64,000 nt of DNA, taken from contig NZ_JAAZQD010000002.1 in assembly GCF_012395255.1 (NCBI RefSeq), positions 453,929 to 517,928 on the forward strand, in the 5' to 3' direction. This DNA comes from Oleiagrimonas citrea (GTDB taxonomy: Bacteria; Pseudomonadota; Gammaproteobacteria; Xanthomonadales; Rhodanobacteraceae). Below, in pieces: positions 10,921-49,102 of this stretch (its first letter is position 1; every line of letters begins with the position of its first letter). The notes under the pieces were generated by a model that was given only the letters and a program-made list of their open reading frames with translations, ran no database searches and was not told where the DNA came from. The position numbers were made by a program, and so were the translations under genes.

Positions 10921-12186
10921 TCAAGCGTCACGCTCACCCGGCAACTGCGGCACGCCATGCGCATTGCGCAGTTCGGGATCGACCGTGAGCGCCACTTCAC
11001 GCACGGCGTGCGCGCCGGGCAGCGCTTCGGTGGCTTCACCGCGGGTCATGCGCAGGGCGTTGCGGTAGCACTGTTGGGCCAGCAGCGGGTTGCCCTGGCC
11101 GGCGTAGGTCTCGCCGAGGGTTTCCCAGGCTTCGGCCGACGGCTCCAGCGACAGCGCCTGCGACAGGTACTGGCGCGCCTTGCCCCACAGTTGGATGCGT
11201 ACGCACATGCGGCCCACTGCGGTCAGCAGGGTGGCGTCACCGGGATGCGCGTCGAGCCAGCCTTCGGCGCGGCGCAGGCGGCCCTCGATATCCTGTCCCT
11301 GCAGCTGTCCGTAGGCCGCCACCAGCGCCGGCGACCAGTTCCGGCGCAGCGCCGACTCGATTTCGTCCATGGCCGGAAGCGGCCGACCGAAGCGCGAGAC
11401 CTGCTCGGCGTAGGCCGCGATCAGTTCCGGCTGACGCCGCTGCGCGCGGGACAGGTCGGCCCACAGGGCGTGCAGCGCATCGACGCTCGGCGCGCGCTGC
11501 AGCGCGGCACGCACCACGCGAAGCTGCAGTGCGGCATAGGCTTCGGCATCCAGCGCGCCGCTCTTGCGAAGGGGGTCCAGCGCGCCGCGCGCGCGGTCGA
11601 CATCGCCGCGCTGCAGGGCGGATTCGGCCAGTTCCAGCCAGCCACCCGGCGGCAGGCGTCCCGCGTCCGCTTCCGGCGCCAGCAGCGCCAGCGCTTCCTC
11701 GGCGCGACCGTCCTCGCGCAGGATGCGCGCGCGCACCACGCGCGCGGCCTGCGGCGCGCTCTGTGTGGCCTGATCCAGCGCCTCCATCGCGCGCTTGATG
11801 TCACCGCGAGCATGCGCGGCCCGTGCCGCGGCCAACAGTGCCGGCGCGCGTTGCGGCGCATGACGCGCCGCGCGACCCAGGTCGCGTTCGGCTTCGCCAT
11901 GACGCCCCTCGGCGAGCGCCAGCAGACCATCGTGAAAACGCTTGCGGCTGACCGCGCGCTGCCGACGCGTGACGGCGCCGAACGGCCAGCGCAGCAGACG
12001 CCAGCCCAGCGAGATCACGCCCCAGAACACCAGCAGCAGCACGATCGCCGTGACCAGCGTCGACTGCACCCGCCAGCCACGGATGCGGATCAGCACCTGG
12101 CCCGGGTCCTCGGCGACCCAGTGCCAGCCGAAGGCCGTGATCGTGACCACGATCGCCAGCAGCAGCACCCAGCGCCAAACCTTCAT
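10921..12186 (-). CDS. hemY: heme biosynthesis-associated TPR protein HemY
   Basis: Two N-terminal TM helices then TPR-like repeats. Overlaps the hemX stop by 4 nt. hemD-hemX-hemY order is conserved. Confidence 0.8.
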   Translation of the reverse strand: MKVWRWVLLLAIVVTITAFGWHWVAEDPGQVLIRIRGWRVQSTLVTAIVLLLVFWGVISLGWRLLRWPFGAVTRRQRAVSRKRFHDGLLALAEGRHGEAERDLGRAARHAPQRAPALLAAARAAHARGDIKRAMEALDQATQSAPQAARVVRARILREDGRAEEALALLAPEADAGRLPPGGWLELAESALQRGDVDRARGALDPLRKSGALDAEAYAALQLRVVRAALQRAPSVDALHALWADLSRAQRRQPELIAAYAEQVSRFGRPLPAMDEIESALRRNWSPALVAAYGQLQGQDIEGRLRRAEGWLDAHPGDATLLTAVGRMCVRIQLWGKARQYLSQALSLEPSAEAWETLGETYAGQGNPLLAQQCYRNALRMTRGEATEALPGAHAVREVALTVDPELRNAHGVPQLPGERDA

Positions 12187-13295
12187 CGCTGCACTCCCTT
12201 GTCCGAAGTCGTCGCGGGGGCGGGCATCGCCGCGCCGTGCACGGCGCGCAGGTTGTTCAGCTCACTCAGCGCCGCGCCCAGTTCCGGCGCAGGGCTCGCG
12301 GTGCGACCGCGCAGTTCGGCGAGTTGCGCGCGCAAGGTGCGCACCGCCACAGCGTGACCGTCGAAGTCACGCTGCAGGCGCTGATCGGCCTGCGTCAGCG
12401 CACTCCGGTAACCGTCCGGGTCCCACGCCAGCAGCGCGGCCTGCGCCTGCGCCAGGTCCAGCGCGGTCAGGGTCTGTGCCAGACGGCGCTGGGCTGGCGT
12501 CACACCGTCGTCGCGCTGCACCTGCACCAGTCCCGCGAACGCGTGCTTGACGCGCGCCCAGAAGCCGTTGCCGGTTTGTTCGACCGGCGCATCCAGCGGC
12601 TTCAGCGGCAGCGTGTCGACCTGGCCGCGCAGACGCGCCAGGGTGTCGAGATCGCTCTGGCGCTGCCCGGGATGCGTCGCGGCCAGAGCCTGACGTTCGC
12701 GGTCGATGCTCTGGCGCACGGCCGCGTAGGCGGGGTCCTCGACCTCGGCCATCACGCGATTGGCCATGGCGTAGGCGTGCATCGCGCCGTCGGCGTCGTG
12801 GAACAGGGTGAATCGCTCGTCCGCCATGCGCAATAGCATCGCCGCTTCGTCCAGCCGCACCGCATCGTGGCCGGATTGCGCCCGCGCGGTCAGGCCGGCG
12901 ACGGCGTTCTCCAGGCTGCGGCTGCGCTCGTTCAGGCTCTGCACCTGCCCACTCAGCGACTGCCCTTGCTGCTGCGCCGCCTGGGTCTGCTGCTGAAGCT
13001 GGCGGCCGCTCTGGTCCAGCGCATTCAGCTTGTCGCCCAGCGACTTCAATTGCGTCTGCACCGTCGACAGCGCGCGCGTGTCCTCGGCGCCGCCCTGCTG
13101 CAGGCGCCACACCCGCCAGCCGCCGTAGGCCGCGGCCAGCAGGGCAATCAGGGCCAGCACCAGGGCCAGGCCGGCCAGCCCCTGCCCGCGACGTGGTTTG
13201 CGCTCGCGCTTCTTCGAAGCGTCGGGAGCGGGAGCCGACGCCGGAGCCGCAGGCGTCGGAGCGGAAGTTTCGTGGTCGGAGTCGGATGCGCTCAT
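12183..13295 (-). CDS. hemX: HemX-like protein (uroporphyrinogen-III C-methyltransferase-annotated family)
   Basis: Pro/Ala-rich N-terminus, single TM segment, Q-rich coiled coil. Position between hemD and hemY. Confidence 0.75.
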   Translation of the reverse strand: MSASDSDHETSAPTPAAPASAPAPDASKKRERKPRRGQGLAGLALVLALIALLAAAYGGWRVWRLQQGGAEDTRALSTVQTQLKSLGDKLNALDQSGRQLQQQTQAAQQQGQSLSGQVQSLNERSRSLENAVAGLTARAQSGHDAVRLDEAAMLLRMADERFTLFHDADGAMHAYAMANRVMAEVEDPAYAAVRQSIDRERQALAATHPGQRQSDLDTLARLRGQVDTLPLKPLDAPVEQTGNGFWARVKHAFAGLVQVQRDDGVTPAQRRLAQTLTALDLAQAQAALLAWDPDGYRSALTQADQRLQRDFDGHAVAVRTLRAQLAELRGRTASPAPELGAALSELNNLRAVHGAAMPAPATTSDKGVQR

Positions 13296-13339
13296 ACGCT
13301 CATGCTAGCCCGAGCGCGGCGCAACGGCCATATGGCGGT

Positions 13340-14110
13340 TCAGCGCGGGTGCCGGTGCGCGGCGACCGCGTCGAGCAGATCCCCGGCGGACGCCGAAGCC
13401 GCGCGCACCGGCTCGCCGAAACCGGCTTCTCGCGCATGCTGCTGCAACCGCGCGCTGCTGACCACGATCCGGCACGCCTGCAGATGCCGCACGGCGGCCT
13501 CAGGCAGGACCTGCATCAGGTTGTCCAGCGCCTGCGCACTGGTCACCAGCAGCCAGGCCGACGCGTCCAGCGCCTGCACCATCTGTACATGCCGGCGACC
13601 GAGCCGTGGCCGGACGCGCTCGTAGACATGCGTGATGCGGACCTGTGCGCCACGCTCGATCAACGCGGTCGCAAGCAGGTCTCGCCCGCCCGGCGCGGTG
13701 ATCAGATTCACACGCAAACCACGCACGCTTTGCAGCCACGGATGTTCCAGCAGCCCCTCGCTGTGCTGGCTGCGCCGCGGCGGGGATTCCGCCTGCATAC
13801 AACCGGCGCGCTGCAGGGCGCGCCGCGTGCCGCTGCCCACGGCCAGCACGCGCGCCTGCGTGTTGAGCGGCGCCAGACGCTGGGCGAAACGCACGGCAGC
13901 CGGACTGGTGAAGATCAGCAGATCGTCCCGCTGCGCCTGCCGCCAAGCCTTGCCCGCCTCGGCCTCGGGCATGGCGCGCAGGGACAGCCCCGGCAACAGG
14001 TGCGGTTCGCCGCCGCGCGCACGCACATGGCGCGCGAGCGCACGCGCGGTGCCGGACGGCCGCGTGATGACAATGTCGACGCCCGCCAGCGTCTGTGCGC
14101 AGGAATCCAT
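13340..14110 (-). CDS. hemD: uroporphyrinogen-III synthase
   Basis: HemD-like ~256 aa product from internal Met (MDSCAQTLAGVDIVITRP). The longer ORF-track N-terminus is low-complexity. Confidence 0.75.
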   Translation of the reverse strand: MDSCAQTLAGVDIVITRPSGTARALARHVRARGGEPHLLPGLSLRAMPEAEAGKAWRQAQRDDLLIFTSPAAVRFAQRLAPLNTQARVLAVGSGTRRALQRAGCMQAESPPRRSQHSEGLLEHPWLQSVRGLRVNLITAPGGRDLLATALIERGAQVRITHVYERVRPRLGRRHVQMVQALDASAWLLVTSAQALDNLMQVLPEAAVRHLQACRIVVSSARLQQHAREAGFGEPVRAASASAGDLLDAVAAHRHPR

Positions 14111-14196
14111 GCCGTCGATGCTACCTGCATCGCGCATGCGCACGAAGCCGATTCTGCTTGCTGACTGTCGAGCGGCTCGGCACACTGACGCGCCTG

Positions 14197-14685
14197 ATGA
14201 ATACCACCACCGTCTCCGATCGCGCGCGCTCGCTGGAGCGCTTCCTTCTCGACAGCATCCCGCCGGCGCGGGCCATGCAACTGCAACTGCTCGAACACGA
14301 TGCCGGCCGCCTGCTCATGGGCGCGCCGCTGGCCGCCAATGTCAACGACAAGGGCTGCGCCTTCGGCGGCAGCCTGACCAGCCTGATGACGCTGGCCGGC
14401 TGGTCATTGGTGGAACTGCTGCTGCGCGAGCACGGCCACGACTGCGATGTGTTCGTGGCCGACTCCCAGGTGCGCTACCTCAAACCGGTGTGGGAAGACC
14501 TGCGCGCCGAGGCGCAGTTCGCCGCGGAGGCCGACCCCGATGCTTTCCTCGACACGCTGGCATCGCGCGGCAAGTCGCGCATTCAGGTCGTGTGCCGCAC
14601 CCTGACCAGCGAGGGCGAAGCCGCCACCCTGGAAGCACGTTTCGTTGCCCGTCTGCGCAACCATGAAGCGCATGCGGCACAATGA
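14197..14685 (+). CDS. hotdog-fold thioesterase (YiiD C-terminal-like)
   Basis: 163 aa from MNTTTV. The conserved ..CAFGGSLTSLMTLAGW..VRYLKPV.. pattern is thioesterase-like. Confidence 0.55.
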   Translation: MNTTTVSDRARSLERFLLDSIPPARAMQLQLLEHDAGRLLMGAPLAANVNDKGCAFGGSLTSLMTLAGWSLVELLLREHGHDCDVFVADSQVRYLKPVWEDLRAEAQFAAEADPDAFLDTLASRGKSRIQVVCRTLTSEGEAATLEARFVARLRNHEAHAAQ

Positions 14686-14710
14686 CCCCTTGCTCGGGGA
14701 GGTGCGAACG

Positions 14711-15139
14711 ATGAACAAGCGTTGGATGACAGGTGCGGTGCTGACGATTCTGCTGGCGCTGCTCGCACTCGGCGGATGCGCCACGGATCGCCGCAGCAGC
14801 AAGCTGCGCGATACGCTGACCGCCTACGGCGCAGCCGTGCGCTGGGGCAGCTTCGATCAGGCGCGCGCGTTCTTGGACCCCAAATACCTGGAAAAACACC
14901 CGCTCACGCACTTGGAAATGGAGCGTTACCACCAGGTCCGCGTCAGCGAATACGATGATGGAAGCGGCCCGATTCCCGTCGACGACACAACCGTGCGCCA
15001 GATCGTCCGCATCGGCCTGATCAACGTCAACACGCAGGCGCAGCGCACCATCATCGACCGCCAGACGTGGACCTACGACCCGGTCAAGAACCACTGGTGG
15101 CTGGAAAGCGGCCTGCCCGACATCACGCCCGGCCACTGA
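14711..15139 (+). CDS. lipoprotein of unknown function
   Basis: GGGGAGG RBS. Signal peptide with lipobox (LALLALGGC). Confidence 0.55.
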   Translation: MNKRWMTGAVLTILLALLALGGCATDRRSSKLRDTLTAYGAAVRWGSFDQARAFLDPKYLEKHPLTHLEMERYHQVRVSEYDDGSGPIPVDDTTVRQIVRIGLINVNTQAQRTIIDRQTWTYDPVKNHWWLESGLPDITPGH

Positions 15140-25759: not shown

Positions 25760-26060
25760 GAGCCGTCATCCCGGCGAACGCCGGGACCCAGCGCCTGCAC
25801 GCACCTCCACGAAAACGCTCGGTTCCGGCACGTGCCGGCATGAAGACCTTGGAGAACCAGCGCCACGAACCGCTGCGTCATACCGAACACACACGACAGC
25901 CGTCGACCACCTGACGCGCGCACGATCTTCCGCAGCCGCACAGCAAAAACCGGCATCCGGGCGCACACCGGAACCTGGCGCCTGCACGCGTCTTCACAAA
26001 AAGGCACTGGATTCCGGCGTGCGCCGGAATGACGACTGCGAAAACCCATGCGTCACGAAC
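25760..26060. repeat. REP-like palindromic elements (at least 2 units)
   Basis: Two related units containing ccggcacgtgccggcatga / ccggcgtgcgccggaatgac stem-loops in the dinG-nnrU intergenic region. Confidence 0.4.
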
Positions 26061-29674: not shown

Positions 29675-29810
29675 CCCGGGGAGGCGTCGACAGCACCTCC
29701 TGTGCTGACAACGAACTGGCGCACATCCCTGTGCCCCCTGGAGGCCTGATCCCCCGCCCCCCGACGCTACCGAATGGGATGGAGTTGCAGACCCGGACCT
29801 CACGGCACGA
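29675..29810 (+). repeat. partial copy (A) of the island-associated structured repeat
   Basis: ~80% identical to the 3' half of copies B/C, including the cagcacctcctgtgctg hairpin and the ggcgcacatccctgtgc hairpin. Confidence 0.5.
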
Positions 29811-30041
29811 ATTAATTGCCTCCGCTCCCTCTTCCTTTTGCCACTTTTTCCAATCGGACAAGACTCATTCGAGCTAAAGCAGGCCTGCTGAAACGGACGT
29901 TTCCGAATGCTTCCATCCGCCCATGTCGGGGCTCGAATGTCTCGACATGGGCTTCGCGTATCATGTCAATCCGACACGGCTTGTCGTGCACCTCGCACCA
30001 TCAAGCACATGGACCTCACTCATCAACCAGAAAGGAATCGT

Positions 30042-32907: not shown

Positions 32908-32980
32908 GCCAAAGAGCGGGACTCGAACCCGCAACCTACGGTTTATGAGACCGTTGCTCTACCCATTGAGCTATCGATAC
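32908..32980 (-). tRNA. tRNA-like element, anticodon loop CUCAUAA (CAU, Met/Ile2-type); acceptor stem does not pair, probable pseudo-tRNA
   Basis: Canonical D arm (TAGCTCAATGGGTAGAGC), anticodon stem-loop ACGGT-CTCATAA-ACCGT and T arm (GCGGG-TTCGAGT-CCCGC). The 5' acceptor strand (GTATCGA) cannot pair with the 3' strand (TCTTTGG). Confidence 0.4.
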
Positions 32981-33051
32981 AAAGGGCAGGAGTCGAACCT
33001 GCGACATCAGCAATCTGAATGCTGCGCTCTCCCAGACTGAGCTACCTTCAG
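32978..33051 (-). tRNA. tRNA-like element, anticodon CAG in a 7-nt loop, class-I length; acceptor stem weak (4 WC + 2 GU + 1 mismatch)
   Basis: Canonical D arm (TAGCTCAGTCTGGGAGAGC), anticodon stem-loop CAGCA-TTCAGAT-TGCTG and T arm (GCAGG-TTCGACT-CCTGC). Its 3' end overlaps the 5' end of the neighbouring element by 3 nt. Confidence 0.4.
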
Positions 33052-37376: not shown

Positions 37377-38450
37377 TTACTGCAGGAACACCGGCTGGAA
37401 CGAGAACACGTTCTTGCTGTCCGGGTCGACCGTCATCTCCACCCAGCTGTTGTCGGCGTTGCCGAACACTTCCACACGGGTGAAGTTCGGCTGGGTCTGG
37501 CCGTTGTCCTTCACCATCGCCTTGTCGACGCGGAAGTAGTGCGAATCGCCATGCACCAGTACCACCTGGCCGTCGAAGTTTTGGGTCTCGTCGATCATGG
37601 CGTGGAAGAAATCGGCGAAGCCGTTGTAGCTCGGGTCCAGCGTTGGCAGGAAGGTATCCTTGTAGTTGCCGTCGGCGACATCGATGCCGCCATACATATC
37701 CGCCTGAATAGCGATCACGACACCGGCCAGGTGCCGCTTCCTGGCCACGGCGAAGGCGTCCGCCAGCCACTGCAAGTTCGCGGCATTGCGCGCGCGGTAT
37801 TCGGCGGTGGCGGCGGCGCAATCGGCCGCGGTACGCATGGACTTCTTCGTGCACTCCTTGTCCGTAGCCACGAAGTTGTTGTTGCTGCCGATCACGTTGA
37901 GTGAAACAAACATCACGCGATCACGGATGAAGCGGCTGTTCTCGCTGTAGGCCTTCCCCGGTGCGCCCTGGCGATCGACCCGCATCGGATGCAGCCCCTG
38001 GCTGACGTTCTTGCTGAAGAACGTCTTGCGCAGGTAGGCGAGCCGTTCCAGCGGGTCGTAGCCGCCGTTGCTGGTGCGATGGCAGTCGGTCCATTCGTTG
38101 TCGCCCAGGCTGTAGATCGTCGGCGCATACACGCGGTCGAAGCGGTTGACCACATCCTGGCCAATGGCCTGATTGGTGCAGAGGCTGTGGCCGTTCTTGG
38201 TATCGCCGACGAAGATGGTGAAGTCCAGATCGTGGTCGTTCAGCGAGTCGATGGTCTGGTTTTCCTGCGCAGCCTGCACGGCCGGATCGTCGGCGTAGAA
38301 CTGATCGCCCCACAGCGCGACATGGATCTTGCCGTGATCGTGGTCATGGCCGTGTCCATGGCCGTGACCGTGGGCATGCGCGAACAGGGGCAGGGCCAGT
38401 GCGGCCGCCAGCATCACGACATTCAGCTTGCTTCGAGAAAGCATGGTCAT
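37377..38450 (-). CDS. secreted calcineurin-like metallophosphoesterase
   Basis: Signal peptide, (HG)n/(HD)n His-rich tract, phosphoesterase motifs GDTKNG and LGDNEW. Confidence 0.8.
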   Translation of the reverse strand: MTMLSRSKLNVVMLAAALALPLFAHAHGHGHGHGHDHDHGKIHVALWGDQFYADDPAVQAAQENQTIDSLNDHDLDFTIFVGDTKNGHSLCTNQAIGQDVVNRFDRVYAPTIYSLGDNEWTDCHRTSNGGYDPLERLAYLRKTFFSKNVSQGLHPMRVDRQGAPGKAYSENSRFIRDRVMFVSLNVIGSNNNFVATDKECTKKSMRTAADCAAATAEYRARNAANLQWLADAFAVARKRHLAGVVIAIQADMYGGIDVADGNYKDTFLPTLDPSYNGFADFFHAMIDETQNFDGQVVLVHGDSHYFRVDKAMVKDNGQTQPNFTRVEVFGNADNSWVEMTVDPDSKNVFSFQPVFLQ

Positions 38451-38574
38451 TCCCTTCCGTATGGGGTGGTTGAGTGATGAAGCGCGAGGTGCACTCGGAA
38501 CCTATCGACGCTGCGTGACAGGTCGATGAACTTGGCTCGCGGCTGCGGCCGGGCGTGAGGGAATTCACACACTC

Positions 38575-38945
38575 CGGCAGCGGGCGGCTCGTAGGGCGGA
38601 CACTGTCCGCCGCATTCCGCTGCGCTCCGTTTTCGAAGAGCGGTTCCGTCCGGCTGGCGCCGGTCGGGTCACTTCTATTGCTTGTCCAATAGAAGTAACC
38701 AAGACAAGGACACCCCAGCGTTCGCGCCCTACGCGCCTGCGGCGCTACGGGTCCGCTCCGGGCTCCGGGGGTTCGCCGACAGTACATCCTGTGCTGGCGA
38801 CGAACTGGCGCACGTCCCTGTGCGCCACCCTGCGGGCCTGATCCTCCACCCTCCGCCGCTACCGAAGGGGATAGGGTTGCACGCCGGAAGCTACGGCAGC
38901 ATTCACTTCAAACGGTTGTAAGTGAACCTGGAACCGTTATCACCT
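38575..38945 (+). repeat. island-associated structured repeat, copy B
   Basis: ~95% identical to copy C over ~370 bp. Contains perfect hairpins gtcacttctattgcttgtccaatagaagtaac and cagtacatcctgtgctg. Ends ..ggaaccgttatcacctgg. Confidence 0.7.
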
Positions 38946-39016
38946 GGGCGGCTTTCGCACAACGACGCTAAACGCAGTGTGTTTACATCACCCGATGCAC
39001 AGCATGCAGGTGGCCG

Positions 39017-40408
39017 CTATTCCACGGCAAAGGGACCAAATTCCTTGTAGTAACCGGTCTCTGGAATGTTTGCGCTCAGGGTGAGTTTTTTCTCTGCATC
39101 GACCTTGATCTTGATACGCACCATCAGTTTCCCAGCCGGACGCGGGGGAAGATTAGTCAGCACGGCATCAAAAAACTTTTTCGCTTCGCCCTCTCCCTTT
39201 TGTGCCAGCTGAATTTCCAATTCCTTCTGATTGGTCTCGGCGTTGGCAAAGGTGTCGGCGAACGTGACGGGAAGGCGGTGTGTCGCCGGAATCAGCGGAA
39301 AGAACTTGCCGCCCTGCGTCACGATACCGATCGTTTTCTTCAGGACCGGCGCGCGTGCCGCGGGCGCGGGTCTTGAAGAAGCTGCATCGCTTCGTGGTGG
39401 CCTGGACGCGGCGCGGACGTTTTCTTTCGGCTTCGTCCTGACTTTTGGACGGTCCAGGTGAACCGGCCCGATATCCTTTTCGGCGAGGGTGTTGACGTTG
39501 TAATTGGTGTACTTGTCCTTGGCCGTATCCACCAGGTATAGGCTGCCGGTGAGGATATTGTTTTTGTCCACCTTCAGCTTGACGCGCACTTCCAGCTCTC
39601 TTCCCGGTCGAAGACCAGGCCGACCATCAAACGTGGTCTCGTACAAGGTCCTCGATCCACCCTTGCCCCTTTCCGTGATTTGGACTTCGAGGGGCTTTTG
39701 GTCGTATTCGACACCCAATTTCCTTTCCCATTCCAGGGGAAGCCGCCGATCTGCCAAAATGGAACCCCGTCTCGTGCCGCCATACCCGGCCTGATGCACG
39801 GTAATGTCGATCGGCGACTTCAATACGGGACCAAATAATGCATTGGCCTCCAAGCAACTGCGGACGGGTATGGTCGGCCGATTCGGATCCGTCGCACAGC
39901 CCTGGTAGTAGTAATGGATGGCGTGTACGCATTTTTCCCGCTGTGCCATGAAACGTTGCCCTTGCGCGGAACAAGAGAACGTGGCATCCGCGTACTGCCC
40001 AGCCTCACCCACGAGCTGTCCCAGGGCCCCGCTCTTGGCCGGCTGTCCCGGCAACTTCGTGTTGAACCCCGGACAGGTGATCGCGACCCGCTCGGTGGTG
40101 GCATTGTTGGGCTTGCAGGCGCCGCCGGCCGGGGATTCGCGCCACACGTAGCGACAGACGTTATTGAAAATCGGCGGCGTGTTTCGCCGCGTGCAGGCGC
40201 CGAAGGCCTGGCAACCCTGCTTGGTGCCGACGCCCTGCGGACATTTCTCCCGGATATGACGGCACACCCCGACATCCATGCACAGACCCCCCAGGACCTT
40301 GCACTGCTTGACGGCGACCTCATATCGCCTCTGGCATGACATGTTGCCAGCCTGCGCGGTGACCGAGAGCAAGATCCCGGCCAGCAAGAATAGTTTCCTG
40401 AGCATCAT
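39017..40408 (-). CDS. secreted Cys-rich protein with two tandem Hsp70 (DnaK) substrate-binding-domain-beta-like repeats
   Basis: GGAGA RBS. Signal peptide MMLRKLFLLAGILLSVTAQA. ~20 Cys in the N-terminal ~200 aa. The C-terminal repeats align to the DnaK SBD-beta sandwich. ~58% GC. Confidence 0.65.
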   Translation of the reverse strand: MMLRKLFLLAGILLSVTAQAGNMSCQRRYEVAVKQCKVLGGLCMDVGVCRHIREKCPQGVGTKQGCQAFGACTRRNTPPIFNNVCRYVWRESPAGGACKPNNATTERVAITCPGFNTKLPGQPAKSGALGQLVGEAGQYADATFSCSAQGQRFMAQREKCVHAIHYYYQGCATDPNRPTIPVRSCLEANALFGPVLKSPIDITVHQAGYGGTRRGSILADRRLPLEWERKLGVEYDQKPLEVQITERGKGGSRTLYETTFDGRPGLRPGRELEVRVKLKVDKNNILTGSLYLVDTAKDKYTNYNVNTLAEKDIGPVHLDRPKVRTKPKENVRAASRPPRSDAASSRPAPAARAPVLKKTIGIVTQGGKFFPLIPATHRLPVTFADTFANAETNQKELEIQLAQKGEGEAKKFFDAVLTNLPPRPAGKLMVRIKIKVDAEKKLTLSANIPETGYYKEFGPFAVE

Positions 40409-40944
40409 GGTCTCCAGGCACATCATCGATCGAATGCTGCCGCCCCCGTGTCCTGTCGACGACCTCGCGCCCGCCCCACCGCAAAGGGGGCAAGAACGCT
40501 GCATTGGAAGCCACGCCGTCATGGCAAGGCCAGCGAAGAAGGGATCGTCGCCATGCTCCCCCGAGATGGCATACGCGAAGGTTCGTACGAACCCGTCCCC
40601 CTCCCCGAAGCGGTTGCCGGCGCATCGCGTGACCTGAAGACTGTGCGAGACACGCAACCCGGCCTGAAGCGAACCGTTCGGGCTTGAAGACCATCTTCCG
40701 GAAATCATTTTCCATATGCAAGACAGTCACTTGCATACTCAGCCTGAGGAGACGACCGCAGCATGGCCGATACATCCAACGCCGCTCCGTACCCATCCAG
40801 CGGCCCAAGAACAGTGCCGGGTACAGTCCCATACTCCATTCAATCGGGCGTAAGAGAACCTGGCCCCGTTCTTTGACGATGCCGCCTCATGATGCCTGCT
40901 GGACAGAGTGAGAGAATCGAAAGCATTTAATGCCCCCGACTCCT

Positions 40945-41345
40945 GTTGAAGGACGGCTCGTAAGGCGGGCACTGCGCGCTGTTTTCCGTTGCGTTTCATC
41001 TCTTAAGAGCGGTTCCGACCGGCTGGCGCCGGCCGGGTCACTTCTATTGCTTGTCCAATAGAAGTCACCAAGACAAGGACACCCCAGCGTCCGCGCCCTA
41101 CGCGCCTGCGGCGCTCCGGGTCCGCTCCGGGTTCCGGGGGTTCGTTGACAGCACCTCCTGTGCTGACGACGAACTGGCGCACATCCCTGTGCGCCACCCT
41201 ACGGGCCTGATCCTCCACCCTCCGCCGCTGCCGAAGGGGATAGGGTTGCACGCCGGAAGCCACTGCAGCATTCACTTCAAACGGTTGTAAGTGAACCTGG
41301 AACCGTTATCAACCGGAACCGTTATCAACCGAACCGTTATCCAGG
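40945..41345 (+). repeat. island-associated structured repeat, copy C (ends in 3x tandem ggaaccgttatca)
   Basis: Collinear with copy B. Hairpins are conserved with substitutions. The 3' end carries three tandem 13-bp units where B has one. Confidence 0.7.
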
Positions 41346-41455
41346 ACCATTGGGACTGCCCGCTCGGGAGATCCAGTTGCGTTAGGATTTGGCGAAGGGA
41401 ACGGGGTTAAAAGGTAATGCCGGCTCCCGTCCATGGTCGGACTAAGGGAATAACC

Positions 41456-42334
41456 ATGCCTGATACCGCAAGAATCCACATCCACGCCTTTCGAGTTTCG
41501 AAAACCGCCAACAGTGCTCACCTCGAAAATTTAATCGATAGGATCGGTCGCCACCGCCTAGAGGACCGAGTTAGGACAATCGTAACCTCCAGCGTCCGCA
41601 TTGAAAGGGTAACCACGAGGCACAACGATGCGCCTCGGGAGACCTACAAGCTAATGGACTTCGTGAGGTTTCGTGATACGCATGGTCCGGGGAAAGCGTC
41701 TCGCGATCACGCAGTTAGTGACTTCGATTTGGGTCCGGACGAATATTTCGGTGAGGAAACAGCGGCGCTCTACGTACCTGAATCGAGATGGCTGCTTGTC
41801 CAGTACAACCATTTTGGCGTTCGTCCGAATGCCATGGCGTCATATTTCAGTTACTTCGACCAACAGCAAACCAACTCTTATGAATTAAGCATCAAACTCG
41901 ACCCTGATGCTGAGCGGCGCTTCATGGAAACGAATGACGTCCGTCGCGTTGAGCTCGACCTAGATCTAACCCAGATGCGCGCGGCAGACAGGGATCGGGG
42001 GTTGGGACTTGGCACTGTTGCGCAATACGGCGCTAACCTCAACGGAGCCAAGCTGAAGCTTACCCTTTCCGTGGGCATGGACAGGAAACGTCGACTGGGC
42101 GGACAAGTTAAGGATGCCGTAACTGACATGATCCAGAACTCAGAAATGGTCACTGGGGCTCAAATCGCAGGGCGTGAGACCCCGGAAGGGCAAGTTGAGG
42201 TCATTGACCTGTTGGAAGAAAAGCTAACTGCGGAGGCCAGCATCACCATTGGCCCGGGTCGACGCTTAGACCAAGAGGAAAGATTCCGTGCCCTGATCTG
42301 GGCGCGTAACCACTGGAGAGACATCCTCAGATGA
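41456..42334 (+). CDS. hypothetical protein (292 aa), cassette gene 1 of the two-gene module
   Basis: AAGGGA RBS. ~52% GC. Soluble, no TM helices. No family I can name. Has an R-x4-H stretch (RFRDTH) and an acidic DFDLGPDE patch. Stop overlaps gene 2 (ATGA). Confidence 0.6.
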   Translation: MPDTARIHIHAFRVSKTANSAHLENLIDRIGRHRLEDRVRTIVTSSVRIERVTTRHNDAPRETYKLMDFVRFRDTHGPGKASRDHAVSDFDLGPDEYFGEETAALYVPESRWLLVQYNHFGVRPNAMASYFSYFDQQQTNSYELSIKLDPDAERRFMETNDVRRVELDLDLTQMRAADRDRGLGLGTVAQYGANLNGAKLKLTLSVGMDRKRRLGGQVKDAVTDMIQNSEMVTGAQIAGRETPEGQVEVIDLLEEKLTAEASITIGPGRRLDQEERFRALIWARNHWRDILR

Positions 42335-42756
42335 CCGAATTGCAGCGCGAACGCTTGTTCCCTTGGCTGTGGGGCGTATGCTCCGCAGCGGCGCTGCTCG
42401 TGGGTCACTATGTCTGGGGGCTCCAGATGCCTACCGGCGATTCGTACAAGTCTGCGCTCTTGACCTTGGGTGGAATATTCGCGGGCTTTATGGCGACCTT
42501 GACCGCGTTGTTGTATTCGATGCGAGACGAGACATTCGAACGACTGCGAGATTCCAAGTACCTCAAAGATCTTCTGGATTACCTCCATGAGGCTCTATGG
42601 TCCAGCTTGCTGCTGTGCTTTGTTACGTGGGTATCGTTCTGGGTGCCCGATTCGTGCTGGTTCCTTCAAGTGGTCTTGGGGGGCCTCGCAGTCTTTACCA
42701 TGGCTGCCATATTCAGGATTGCGAAGATCGCTAGTTCGTTGCTGGCTGACAGATAG
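42331..42756 (+). CDS. small 4-TM membrane protein (141 aa), cassette gene 2
   Basis: Four hydrophobic helices (LFPWLWGVCSAAALLVGHYVWGL, ALLTLGGIFAGFMATLTALLY, LLLCFVTWVSFWV, FLQVVLGGLAVFTMAAIF). Translationally coupled to gene 1. Followed by an aaaggccgcccc-gag-gggtggccttt hairpin. Confidence 0.6.
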   Translation: MTELQRERLFPWLWGVCSAAALLVGHYVWGLQMPTGDSYKSALLTLGGIFAGFMATLTALLYSMRDETFERLRDSKYLKDLLDYLHEALWSSLLLCFVTWVSFWVPDSCWFLQVVLGGLAVFTMAAIFRIAKIASSLLADR

Positions 42757-42849
42757 CTTTCTGACACAAAGTTGATCCGGACTTTCCGTACAGATGTCCG
42801 TACAACGACAAAGGCCGCCCCGAGGGGTGGCCTTTGTCATAGCGTTCAT

Positions 42850-42899
42850 TGGTGGGCGGTACAAGGATCGAACTTGTGACACCTGCCGTGTGAAGGAAG
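42850..42899 (-). other. tRNA 3'-end fragment with encoded CCA (att-site-like integration scar)
   Basis: Reverse complement reads ..CTTCACACGGCAGGTGTC-ACAAG-TTCGATC-CTTGT-ACCGCCC-A-CCA. That is a perfect T arm, 7-nt acceptor 3' strand, discriminator and CCA. No matching 5' half or D arm upstream. Confidence 0.6.
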
Positions 42900-42914
42900 G
42901 GCGCGCCAAAGATG

Positions 42915-43200
42915 ACGGGGTAGTTAGCTCGTGCCGTAACGTGCCGGTTTACGCCTCCCCTTCGATAGCGGCGGAGGGTGGAGGATCAGGCCCGCAGGGT
43001 GGCGCACAGGGATGTGCGCCAGTTCGTCGTCAGGTCAGGATGACCTGTCGACGAACCCCCGGAACCCGGAGCGGACCTGGAGGCCCGAAGGGCCGGAAGG
43101 CGCGGACGTTGGGGCGCCCTTCTTTGGTTCCTTTCTTGGGCGAACAAGAAAGGAACCCAGCCGGCGCCAGCCGGTCGGAACCGCTCTTCATCGAAGTCAT
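42915..43200 (-). repeat. island-associated structured repeat, copy D (inverted orientation, more diverged)
   Basis: Reverse complement is collinear with B/C. Hairpin 1 is replaced by a different perfect hairpin ggttcctttcttgttcgcccaagaaaggaacc, hairpin 2 by caggtcatcctgacctg. Confidence 0.65.
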
Positions 43201-43226
43201 GAACCGTCGAGAACGGTGCAGGAAGT

Positions 43227-49102
<5,876 letters not shown>

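Follow-up and report, generated by a model that had tools for sequence, protein, structure and literature searches.

What is a family of repeated multi-hairpin sequences doing on either side of small groups of genes near gltD in Oleiagrimonas citrea? The question is raised by a 64,000-nt stretch of the O. citrea genome (the window), in which a reading made from the letters alone (the sequence-only reading) had described structured repeats bracketing cargo and had offered a mobile element, a cassette recombination site or a small RNA gene as candidates. We found a multi-hairpin unit of ~245 nt present in the window as three full copies (B, C and D) and one partial copy (A), and at least 15 additional copies were found outside it. 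The reading that we favour, with a rough probability of 0.5, is that these lineage-restricted structured intergenic repeats serve as bookends for accessory cassettes, that the cassettes are exchanged by recombination in the inner block of the repeat, and that the folded strand is probably RNA of the complement.

Repeat copies in the window

The limits of the cores were set by a profile built from 13 copies. The core of copy B was located at 38635-38878 on the plus strand (nhmmer E = 2e-81), that of copy C at 41003-41247 on the plus strand (E = 5e-81), and that of copy D, which is inverted, at 42950-43190 on the minus strand (E = 2e-72). A search of the 64-kb window with the same profile detected no copy beyond A-D. 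The repeats were thus present where the sequence-only reading had placed them, far above chance, although its coordinates were wider than the cores; the difference is explained by a hairpin resembling repetitive extragenic palindromic (REP) sequences upstream and by a 3' extension, both shared by B and C. The REP-like hairpins, which carry a GTAG head (GTAGGGCGGACACTGTCCGCC), lie at 38591-38611 and 40960-40979.

Copies B and C are near-identical direct copies as described, but their identity is about 91% and not the ~95% given earlier: BLAST returned 90.7% over 366 nt, and a repeat search returned a 300-nt direct repeat (38582-38881 and 40951-41250) with 90% ungapped identity. The description of copy D as inverted and more diverged was borne out by its arms at 42956-43136 (181 nt), which are 84-85% complementary to B and C; the repeat search also reported a 62-nt block that recurs at 29676-29737, in copy A. 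Copy A (29676-29828, plus strand) proved a real partial copy. It consists of the 3' half of the core, with 29676-29786 corresponding to profile positions 134-247 (nhmmer E = 2e-23), and of a type I motif, ATTAATTGCCTCCGCTCC, at 29811-29828. The motif scan further indicated a core-less remnant of a 3' extension at 40845-40942 on the plus strand, with motifs resembling type II at 40850-40870 and type I at ~40918-40942.

Anatomy of the repeat unit

The full unit ranges from 245 to 310 nt, contains at least five hairpins and has the end sequences AAGAGCGGTTCCG and CCGAAGGGGA, the former being read at the outer end in the sense used by the sequence-only reading (the unit sense). This outer end carries P1, a GC-rich hairpin (CCGACCGGC-TGGC-GCCGGCCGG) followed by a U-rich run, which together were detected by the terminator scan in the unit sense. 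P1 is followed in order by hairpin 1, the middle hairpin, hairpin 2 with a conserved A.A mismatch, and hairpin 3; in copy B the consensus structure places these five elements on the plus strand at 38648-38669, 38667-38700, 38733-38745, 38771-38805 and 38807-38826, respectively. The core closes with the invariant tail ...CCTGATCCTCCACCCTCCGCCGCTACCGAAGGGGA. Its inner 75-110 nt are nearly invariant, with a mean pairwise identity between copies of 96% over the inner 75 nt and 82% over the outer half, and even a distant metagenome copy keeps 96% conservation in the inner part. Non-orthologous copies have exact runs of 26-140 nt in common.

The three hairpin sequences quoted by the sequence-only reading were all found as written in the window. 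Its statement that hairpin 3 is constant did not hold, the loop being ACGTCC in copy B and the stem being broken in copy A, and it had overlooked P1 and the middle hairpin, the latter of which covaries as GCGCC-TGC-GGCGC, GGCCC-TTC-GGGCC and GGAGC-TAC-GCTCC. Hairpin 1 has 13-14-bp arms around a 6-7-nt spacer and occurs as an a-type variant in copy C and a b-type variant in copy D. In two copies (L005 ~753-1046 and L006 5954-6264) its loop region carries insertions of 50 nt (palindromic) and 69 nt, respectively, and the copy with the 50-nt insertion, L5a, is a chimera with a c-type 5' arm and an a-type 3' arm. A protein-coding reading of the unit on either strand was rejected because of these 50- and 69-nt insertions and of single-base indels between conserved copies, which exclude a coding function.

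Past the core lies a 3' extension of 40-100 nt, whose hairpin differs in every copy and whose motif is either type I (ATTAATTGCCTCCGTCCC) or type II (GTAAGTGAACCTGGAACCGTT). In copy B the extension spans 38879-38945 on the plus strand, with a variable hairpin and then the type II motif at 38918-38938 (motif scan and alignment); in copy C it spans 41248-41343 on the plus strand, with the type II motif at 41287-41307. Tandem multiplication is seen in short motifs at the repeats' inner edge, namely GGAACCGTTATCA three times in copy C (41295-41343) and ATTAATTGCCTCCGTCCC three times in the metagenome contig L008 (382-444). The idea that each cassette has a type I end and a type II end was considered and dropped, as locus L004 has type II at both ends.

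Arrangement of copies around accessory cassettes

The end of the unit with the invariant tail always faces cargo, so that arrays take the form -> cargo -> cargo <-. Among eight adjacent pairs of full copies, five were convergent, three tandem and none divergent. The copy at the end of an array usually adjoins the 3' end of a conserved gene and is co-directional with it, as seen for gltD in four genomes and for a penicillin-amidase gene; a solo copy in the metagenome-assembled genome (MAG) L006 sits in the same way just past a gene identified by eye as ribD. In the window, copy D is anchored by gltD (glutamate synthase small subunit; 43227-44651, minus strand), starting ~36 nt past its stop codon and running in the same direction. 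Orthologues of copy D lie downstream of gltD in Oleiagrimonas soli (L002), Oleiagrimonas sp. MCCC 1A03011 (L010) and the MAG L007. Copy B is anchored by a 357-aa gene without a Pfam match (37377-38450, minus strand), which in O. soli is found between copies L5a and L2b.

Cassette 1 of the window encodes a 469-aa protein (39017-40426, minus strand) with a weak match to an HSP70 substrate domain and an N-terminus that resembles a signal peptide by eye; it is present in the window strain and in MCCC 1A03011. Cassette 2 encodes a DUF6731 protein (41456-42334, plus strand), which weakly matches PDC-M67A, a candidate defence family in PADLOC (E = 1e-7), and a 141-aa protein (42331-42756, plus strand) without a family match and hydrophobic by eye. 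These two genes may form a two-gene defence cassette. The cargo, taken together, is accessory material of varied kinds, which also includes a protein with an IrrE/M78 peptidase domain and a match to capP, a defence-associated profile of PADLOC, as well as a trypsin-like peptidase and several proteins that match no family. Both strands carry cargo genes. The main ORFs tested across ~23.5-51.5 kb of the window showed no recombinase or transposase domain, which agrees with the earlier remark that no integrase is recognisable, and neither did the cassette ORFs and flanking genes tested at the other loci.

Cassette 2 also contains the 3' half of a tRNA, from the anticodon arm to ACCGCCCACCA with CCA encoded (42851-42895, minus strand), between a terminator-like hairpin (42812-42838) and copy D. 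The fragment is absent beside the orthologous copies in O. soli, MCCC 1A03011 and L007. It belongs to the cassette, and its appearance is that of a remnant att site from a tRNA-targeting integrative element that brought in cassette 2. The idea of a tmRNA or tRNA-like RNA, suggested by the CCA-bearing fragment beside copy D, was discarded: ARAGORN and Rfam were negative there, and the orthologous copies L2a and L7a are without the fragment.

Exchange of cassettes between the inner ends of fixed cores

The window strain is close to MCCC 1A03011, the GltD proteins being 99% identical. The window (L009) and the MCCC 1A03011 locus (L010) are collinear at 98% nucleotide identity with a sole exception, L010 11696-12979 versus L009 11696-13402. 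Homology stops at ...CGAAGGGG, the inner end of copy D, and resumes at the same position of copy C. Between these inner ends the window has the DUF6731 and membrane-protein genes and the tRNA fragment, whereas MCCC 1A03011 has a DUF4236 gene in the opposite orientation. The cassette picture drawn by the sequence-only reading is upheld by this exact replacement of the cassette 2 genes. The 3' extensions change along with the cassette, whereas the cores do not. In O. soli another cargo, of 3.5 kb, lies between the orthologues of D and B, and homology again ends at their inner ends. The cores are found at fixed chromosomal positions in related strains and species, and the content between their inner ends differs. 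The cores themselves are patchworks: at the orthologous copy C, the hairpin-1 module is a-type in the window but c-type in MCCC 1A03011, within otherwise near-identical sequence, and orthologous cores are made up of hairpin modules copied from other copies.

Under the bookend reading, recombination in the near-identical inner part of the cores would exchange the cassettes. It would most likely be homologous recombination of the RecA type or gene conversion, in which DNA arriving from a related strain could take part; a double crossover with such DNA would be one route. Exact runs of 26-140 nt suffice for RecA-type recombination. End points at the edge of the inner block, combined with patchy conversion inside the cores, would be the pattern expected from homologous recombination between dispersed repeats, and a dedicated transposase or integrase appears less likely. 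A Chi-like, orientation-dependent hotspot was also considered, with GCTGGCGC in P1 and GGTGGAGG on the complement.

The same break points invite a second explanation, in which the cores are folded single-stranded DNA or cruciform sites for an unlinked site-specific recombinase, similar to integron attC sites or to the XerC/D-dependent pdif sites of Acinetobacter, and cassettes are inserted and excised at the end of the core. Structure is kept while sequence varies, as in attC, the break points fall at the same core position on both sides, and modules lie between inverted sites, as in pdif modules. The arms and spacer of hairpin 1, where two copies have insertions and one of them is an a/c chimera, would also suit a recombinase site. 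However, hairpin 1 is at the opposite end of the unit from the break point, and the most conserved part of the core is conserved in sequence and not only in structure. The unit, at 245-310 nt and with at least five hairpins, is far larger than an attC of 57-141 bp or a dif of 28 bp; by eye the GC-rich core has no GTTRRRY or RYYYAAC core sites and no A/T-rich dif-like 28-mer; cargo genes occur in both orientations; and no integrase or recombinase was detected in the tested ORFs of the window or of any locus. We consider such a site unlikely. In general plan the family does resemble the pdif modules of Acinetobacter plasmids and integron arrays, including clusters of attC sites without an integrase: small modules have repeated structured sites at their borders, close relatives differ in module content through swapping, no recombinase lies inside, and (for attC) structure counts for more than sequence. 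It differs from integrons in having no intI, attI, Pc or attC core sites and in arrays that are not co-oriented throughout, and from both systems in being chromosomal and restricted to one genus. It differs from pdif in that no 28-bp two-arm site (11 bp plus a 6-bp spacer) was read in the core, although the inverted-pair layout is present.

The paired arrangement might suggest the ends of a non-autonomous mobile element, either a miniature inverted-repeat transposable element (MITE) or a composite transposon with long terminal inverted repeats, served by a transposase in trans. Convergent pairs flank cargo at five loci, truncated copies retain the inner end, motifs near that end are multiplied (three times each in copy C and in L008), and type II copies have an imperfect 9-13-bp terminal match, AGCGGTTCC / GGAACCGTT, which is absent in type I copies. 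Against this, outer flanks compared at five copy pairings showed no target-site duplication at any of them, the cores occupy orthologous positions in four genomes around a changing interior, some copies occur in tandem arrays or alone, two paired copies resemble each other no more closely than unrelated ones do, and the ORFs tested at the loci include no transposase. The MITE candidate of the sequence-only reading is thus disfavoured, with no target-site duplications, a terminal match of 9-13 bp in some copies only, ~8 or more copies per genome and stable positions, and we regard an origin as mobile-element ends as decidedly unlikely. Likenesses to MITEs and Correia-type elements are that the repeat is short, non-coding and structured, that pairs can flank genes and that some copies have a terminal inverted match; unlike those elements, it has no target-site duplications and, in most copies, no clear terminal inverted repeats, and it shows stable positions and a low copy number.

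If the bookend reading is true, the locus presents a compact, integrase-free way of swapping small accessory or defence-like cassettes at fixed chromosomal slots. Structured repeats would then act as portable homology arms, a chromosomal counterpart to integron cassettes and plasmid pdif modules.

The whole interval of ~26.7-43.2 kb is a variable hotspot. In the window gltD and the NnrU and helicase genes are ~16.5 kb apart, and in the MAG L011 (85% GltD identity) the interval between gltD and NnrU/helicase (11425-14759) holds two genes. Roughly four tandem units of ~125 nt, resembling REP sequences or bacterial interspersed mosaic elements (BIMEs), lie downstream of gltD in L011 at 11425-12000.

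Compensatory change in the hairpins

Covariation was assessed on 14 copies with a consensus structure predicted on the complement strand. Standard pairs occupied 98.6% of the cells, and 17 pairs had changed on both sides, compared with 1-4 when the 3' partners were slid by 1-3 columns, although the cells are not independent events because modules move as blocks. The observed pairing and covariation values were reached in none of 500 shuffles. Two-sided changes were distributed over hairpin 1 (seven pairs), hairpin 2 (four), the middle hairpin with its extension (four) and P1 (two). The distinct paired variants include ACTTCTATTG/CAATAGAAGT, CCTTTCTTG/CAAGAAAGG and CATTTTCTTG/CAAGAAAACG; one variant has lost a base pair from both arms, and in another the stem top has changed from G-C to U-A. 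Pairing is kept in a minimum of six hairpin 1 variants, five hairpin 2 variants and three variants of the middle hairpin, and all hairpin 2 variants retain the A.A mismatch and a TCC-containing loop. Fold z-scores of -5.7 and -5.5 on the two strands were both far better than those of shuffled sequence.

These counts confirm what had been proposed from fewer copies, that the hairpins are preserved by compensatory change, and the confirmed structure-preserving substitution points to selection on a folded single strand, whether RNA or single-stranded DNA. The hairpins thus appear to be maintained by such selection. Repeated compensatory evolution across five helices within one genus makes an unusually clean case, and the family is a good candidate for a new Rfam family.

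An alternative is that the copies are selfish or neutral intergenic mosaic repeats related to the local REP/BIME sequences, functionless and kept complementary because whole modules are copied. Copies B, C, L6a and L7a do have a REP-like GTAG hairpin immediately upstream, copies have demonstrably shuffled modules among themselves, and the core-free relative L011 carries at the same gltD site its REP/BIME-like array, which shares GAGCGG and TTGCTTGTCC with the outer part of the core. Yet the many hairpin variants are all paired, including the paired one-bp deletion and the conserved A.A mismatch, and these variants need repeated compensatory fixation; the loop GGA/TCC is invariant amid varying neighbours; and the inner part keeps its conservation of 96% as far as the distant metagenome copy. 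A functionless mosaic seems quite improbable on these grounds.

The folded strand

Under the bookend reading, the folded strand is probably an RNA transcribed from the complement of the unit sense, that is, from the minus strand for A, B and C and the plus strand for D. Transcription of such an RNA would proceed from the cassette outward as far as P1, a hairpin that would serve as terminator for the convergent neighbouring gene as well, and the conserved loops of the RNA would show GGA. Every cassette is flanked on one side or both by a copy that, in the complement orientation, immediately follows a cargo gene, and the RNA, if present, may arise by read-through from cargo genes. Read on the complement, P1 would be the 3'-terminal hairpin of the RNA, the position expected of a terminator. 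Consensus energies on the same alignment were -116.5 kcal/mol for the complement and -97.8 kcal/mol for the unit sense, and 14 of 14 copies were more stable on the complement, in strand tests that G/U-richness and a complement-predicted structure render biased and not decisive. G.U pairs occupied 18 cells of the covarying helices on the complement versus four on the unit sense. In 9 of 14 copies, a lower-stem pair of hairpin 2 is U.G on the complement where the unit sense has C.A, and in four copies the complement has a G.U pair in c-type hairpin 1.

The unit sense has its own claim as a small regulatory RNA, whose C/U-rich loops (AUCCU and AUCCCU) and single-stranded stretch GAUCCUCCACCCUCC would pair with ribosome-binding sites. 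Conservation and C/U-richness mark both the loops and the stretch, folding is good on this strand too (z = -5.5), and the unit bears a weak resemblance to EcpR1 / Atu_C6 (23 bits, E = 3.3, against a gathering score of 60). Such an RNA, however, would start with a terminator-like hairpin and a U-rich run, has no conserved promoter upstream, with 5' flanks unrelated between copies, would in 9 of 14 copies have C.A mismatched in the hairpin 2 lower stem, where the complement pairs U.G, and has the weaker consensus energy. We hold it to be very improbable. The broader suggestion of a small RNA gene carried with each cassette does not fit, since cores stay while cassette and extension change and no promoter is conserved.

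Several points count against the bookend reading or parts of it. A site-specific recombinase acting at the end of the core would give the same break points, and these data cannot separate the two; the comparison comprises one very close strain pair and one species pair at the same locus, so that the high-resolution evidence covers one locus. Whole hairpin modules move as blocks, which could spread complementary arms without fresh selection; block transfer does not account for the origin of the distinct variants, and their number still requires repeated compensatory fixation. With regard to the strand, a higher content of G and U always brings more G.U pairs and stability, and the reference structure was itself predicted on the complement. 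The promoter scan, at the sigma-70 threshold of the tool, detected no conserved promoter on either strand. A terminator-like hairpin at 42812-42838, read from the sequence and not in the list of the terminator scan, stands between cassette 2 and copy D, so that D may not be transcribed from the cassette. The tail past P1 on the complement (AACCGCUCUU) is a poor U-tract. A promoter found by hand in the extension of copy C (TTGATA-17-TACAAC) was set aside, as it is not conserved in other copies.

Resemblance to CsrA/RsmA-binding RNAs

The complement of each core could conceivably encode a member of a new family of candidate CsrA/RsmA-binding RNAs, with ~8 or more paralogues per genome tied to cassette borders and acting as a sponge or as a cis-acting 3'UTR or leader module. 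Judged from sequence features, this is a speculative lead that we consider unlikely to hold. The complement loops read CAGGAUG in hairpin 2, which we take to be the CsrB repeat motif, and ACAGGGAUGU in hairpin 3, which presumably fits the SELEX consensus RUACARGGAUGU. GGA is invariant and always exposed in both loops, whereas neighbouring bases vary. Per ~248 nt the complement has 10-14 GGA and the unit sense 1-4; the complement count is about twice the dinucleotide-shuffle expectation (z ~3) and, at 10-14 per ~250 nt, presumably near the density in CsrC, with only 2-5 GGA per copy having an unpaired probability above 0.5. No Csr/Rsm family of Rfam was matched at E up to 10 over 38400-43400, and no full GacA/UvrY box was found; TGTAAG is present in the type II motif. 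A search for CsrA indicated that its clusters are common in Xanthomonadales (Luteimonas, Lysobacter and Dokdonella), with none assigned to Oleiagrimonas.

To our knowledge, canonical CsrB/RsmXYZ RNAs are not known in Xanthomonadales. The repeat complement resembles CsrB, CsrC, RsmX/Y/Z and RsmU in its length of ~250 nt, its 10-14 GGA, its GGA loops, its terminal GC hairpin and its several paralogous copies per genome. It is unlike CsrB-type RNAs in having no Rfam match, GacA/UvrY box or conserved promoter, and the link to cassette borders seen in the repeat family is without precedent among them. Xanthomonas RsmU is a non-canonical, 3'UTR-derived sponge RNA that binds RsmA, carries four GGA motifs and lies outside all known families of RsmA-antagonist small RNAs (PMC7694677). 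If the complement binds CsrA/RsmA, the family would help to explain how this regulator is antagonised in Xanthomonadales, and it would tie post-transcriptional control to horizontally acquired genes, new genes being placed under RsmA control.

Distribution and comparison with known repeats

Besides the window strain, the family was seen only in O. soli, Oleiagrimonas sp. MCCC 1A03011, two MAGs and one metagenome contig. A scan with a 21-mer from the core over one genome per species returned O. soli 3.5X (four loci) and two gammaproteobacterial MAGs; a seventh 21-mer locus, in the Caulobacterales MAG L003, was judged a chance match. One metagenome scan yielded a single contig (L008) with two copies as a convergent pair. 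About eight or more copies were seen in O. soli. Relatives with 76-85% GltD identity had no core within 10 kb of gltD, and two Oleiagrimonas-like contigs had no copy around dbpA; at the dbpA locus the relatives L015 and L016 have only dbpA itself in common.

Rfam 15, searched with the whole window at gathering thresholds, returned no match to the unit and only two tRNA hits. The Rfam check called for by the sequence-only reading also came back without any known RNA when 38400-43400 was searched at E up to 10: no family was reached, the best being EcpR1 with 23.4 bits against a gathering score of 60. BLAST of one copy in distant mode gave no match in 72,556 plasmids (PLSDB) or 50,697 phages (GenBank), and a pattern scan of IMG/VR gave no match. 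The restricted matches, taken with these negative searches, suggest a family that is young, confined to part of one genus and undescribed; as judged by sequence matching, it is a lineage-restricted family that corresponds to no described RNA or mobile-element family.

The closest kind of element is that of interspersed structured repeats, namely BIME/REP and the enterobacterial repetitive intergenic consensus (ERIC, or intergenic repeat unit, IRU) of Gammaproteobacteria. Like these, the repeat is intergenic, non-coding and limited to one lineage, consists of mosaic palindromic modules with compensatory hairpins, often lies between convergent genes, where a terminator or stabiliser role is possible, and has internal insertions in some copies. 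It differs from REP in being 245-310 nt long, compared with a 20-40-nt GTAG-headed palindrome, and in having few copies where REP has hundreds, and from ERIC in not being a single palindrome. Unlike all of these, it is strictly oriented to cassettes and has a sequence-invariant inner block, and it shares no sequence similarity with them.

Other features of the window

A stretch at 28-32 kb has a lower GC content (58-60%) and carries esterase, DUF5648 and SPFH genes; most of it has no matching sequence in the syntenic O. soli locus. On the minus strand at 32914-33051, a tRNA-Leu(CAG) is separated by 2 nt from a following tRNA-like sequence, which matches model positions 6-65 only, has the anticodon CAU by eye and was not called by ARAGORN. 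An unrelated short repeat with the palindrome TCCCGGCGAACGCCGGGA occurs at 25763-25818 and 25950-26005, 187 nt apart, and also in O. soli (L002 1827-1909).

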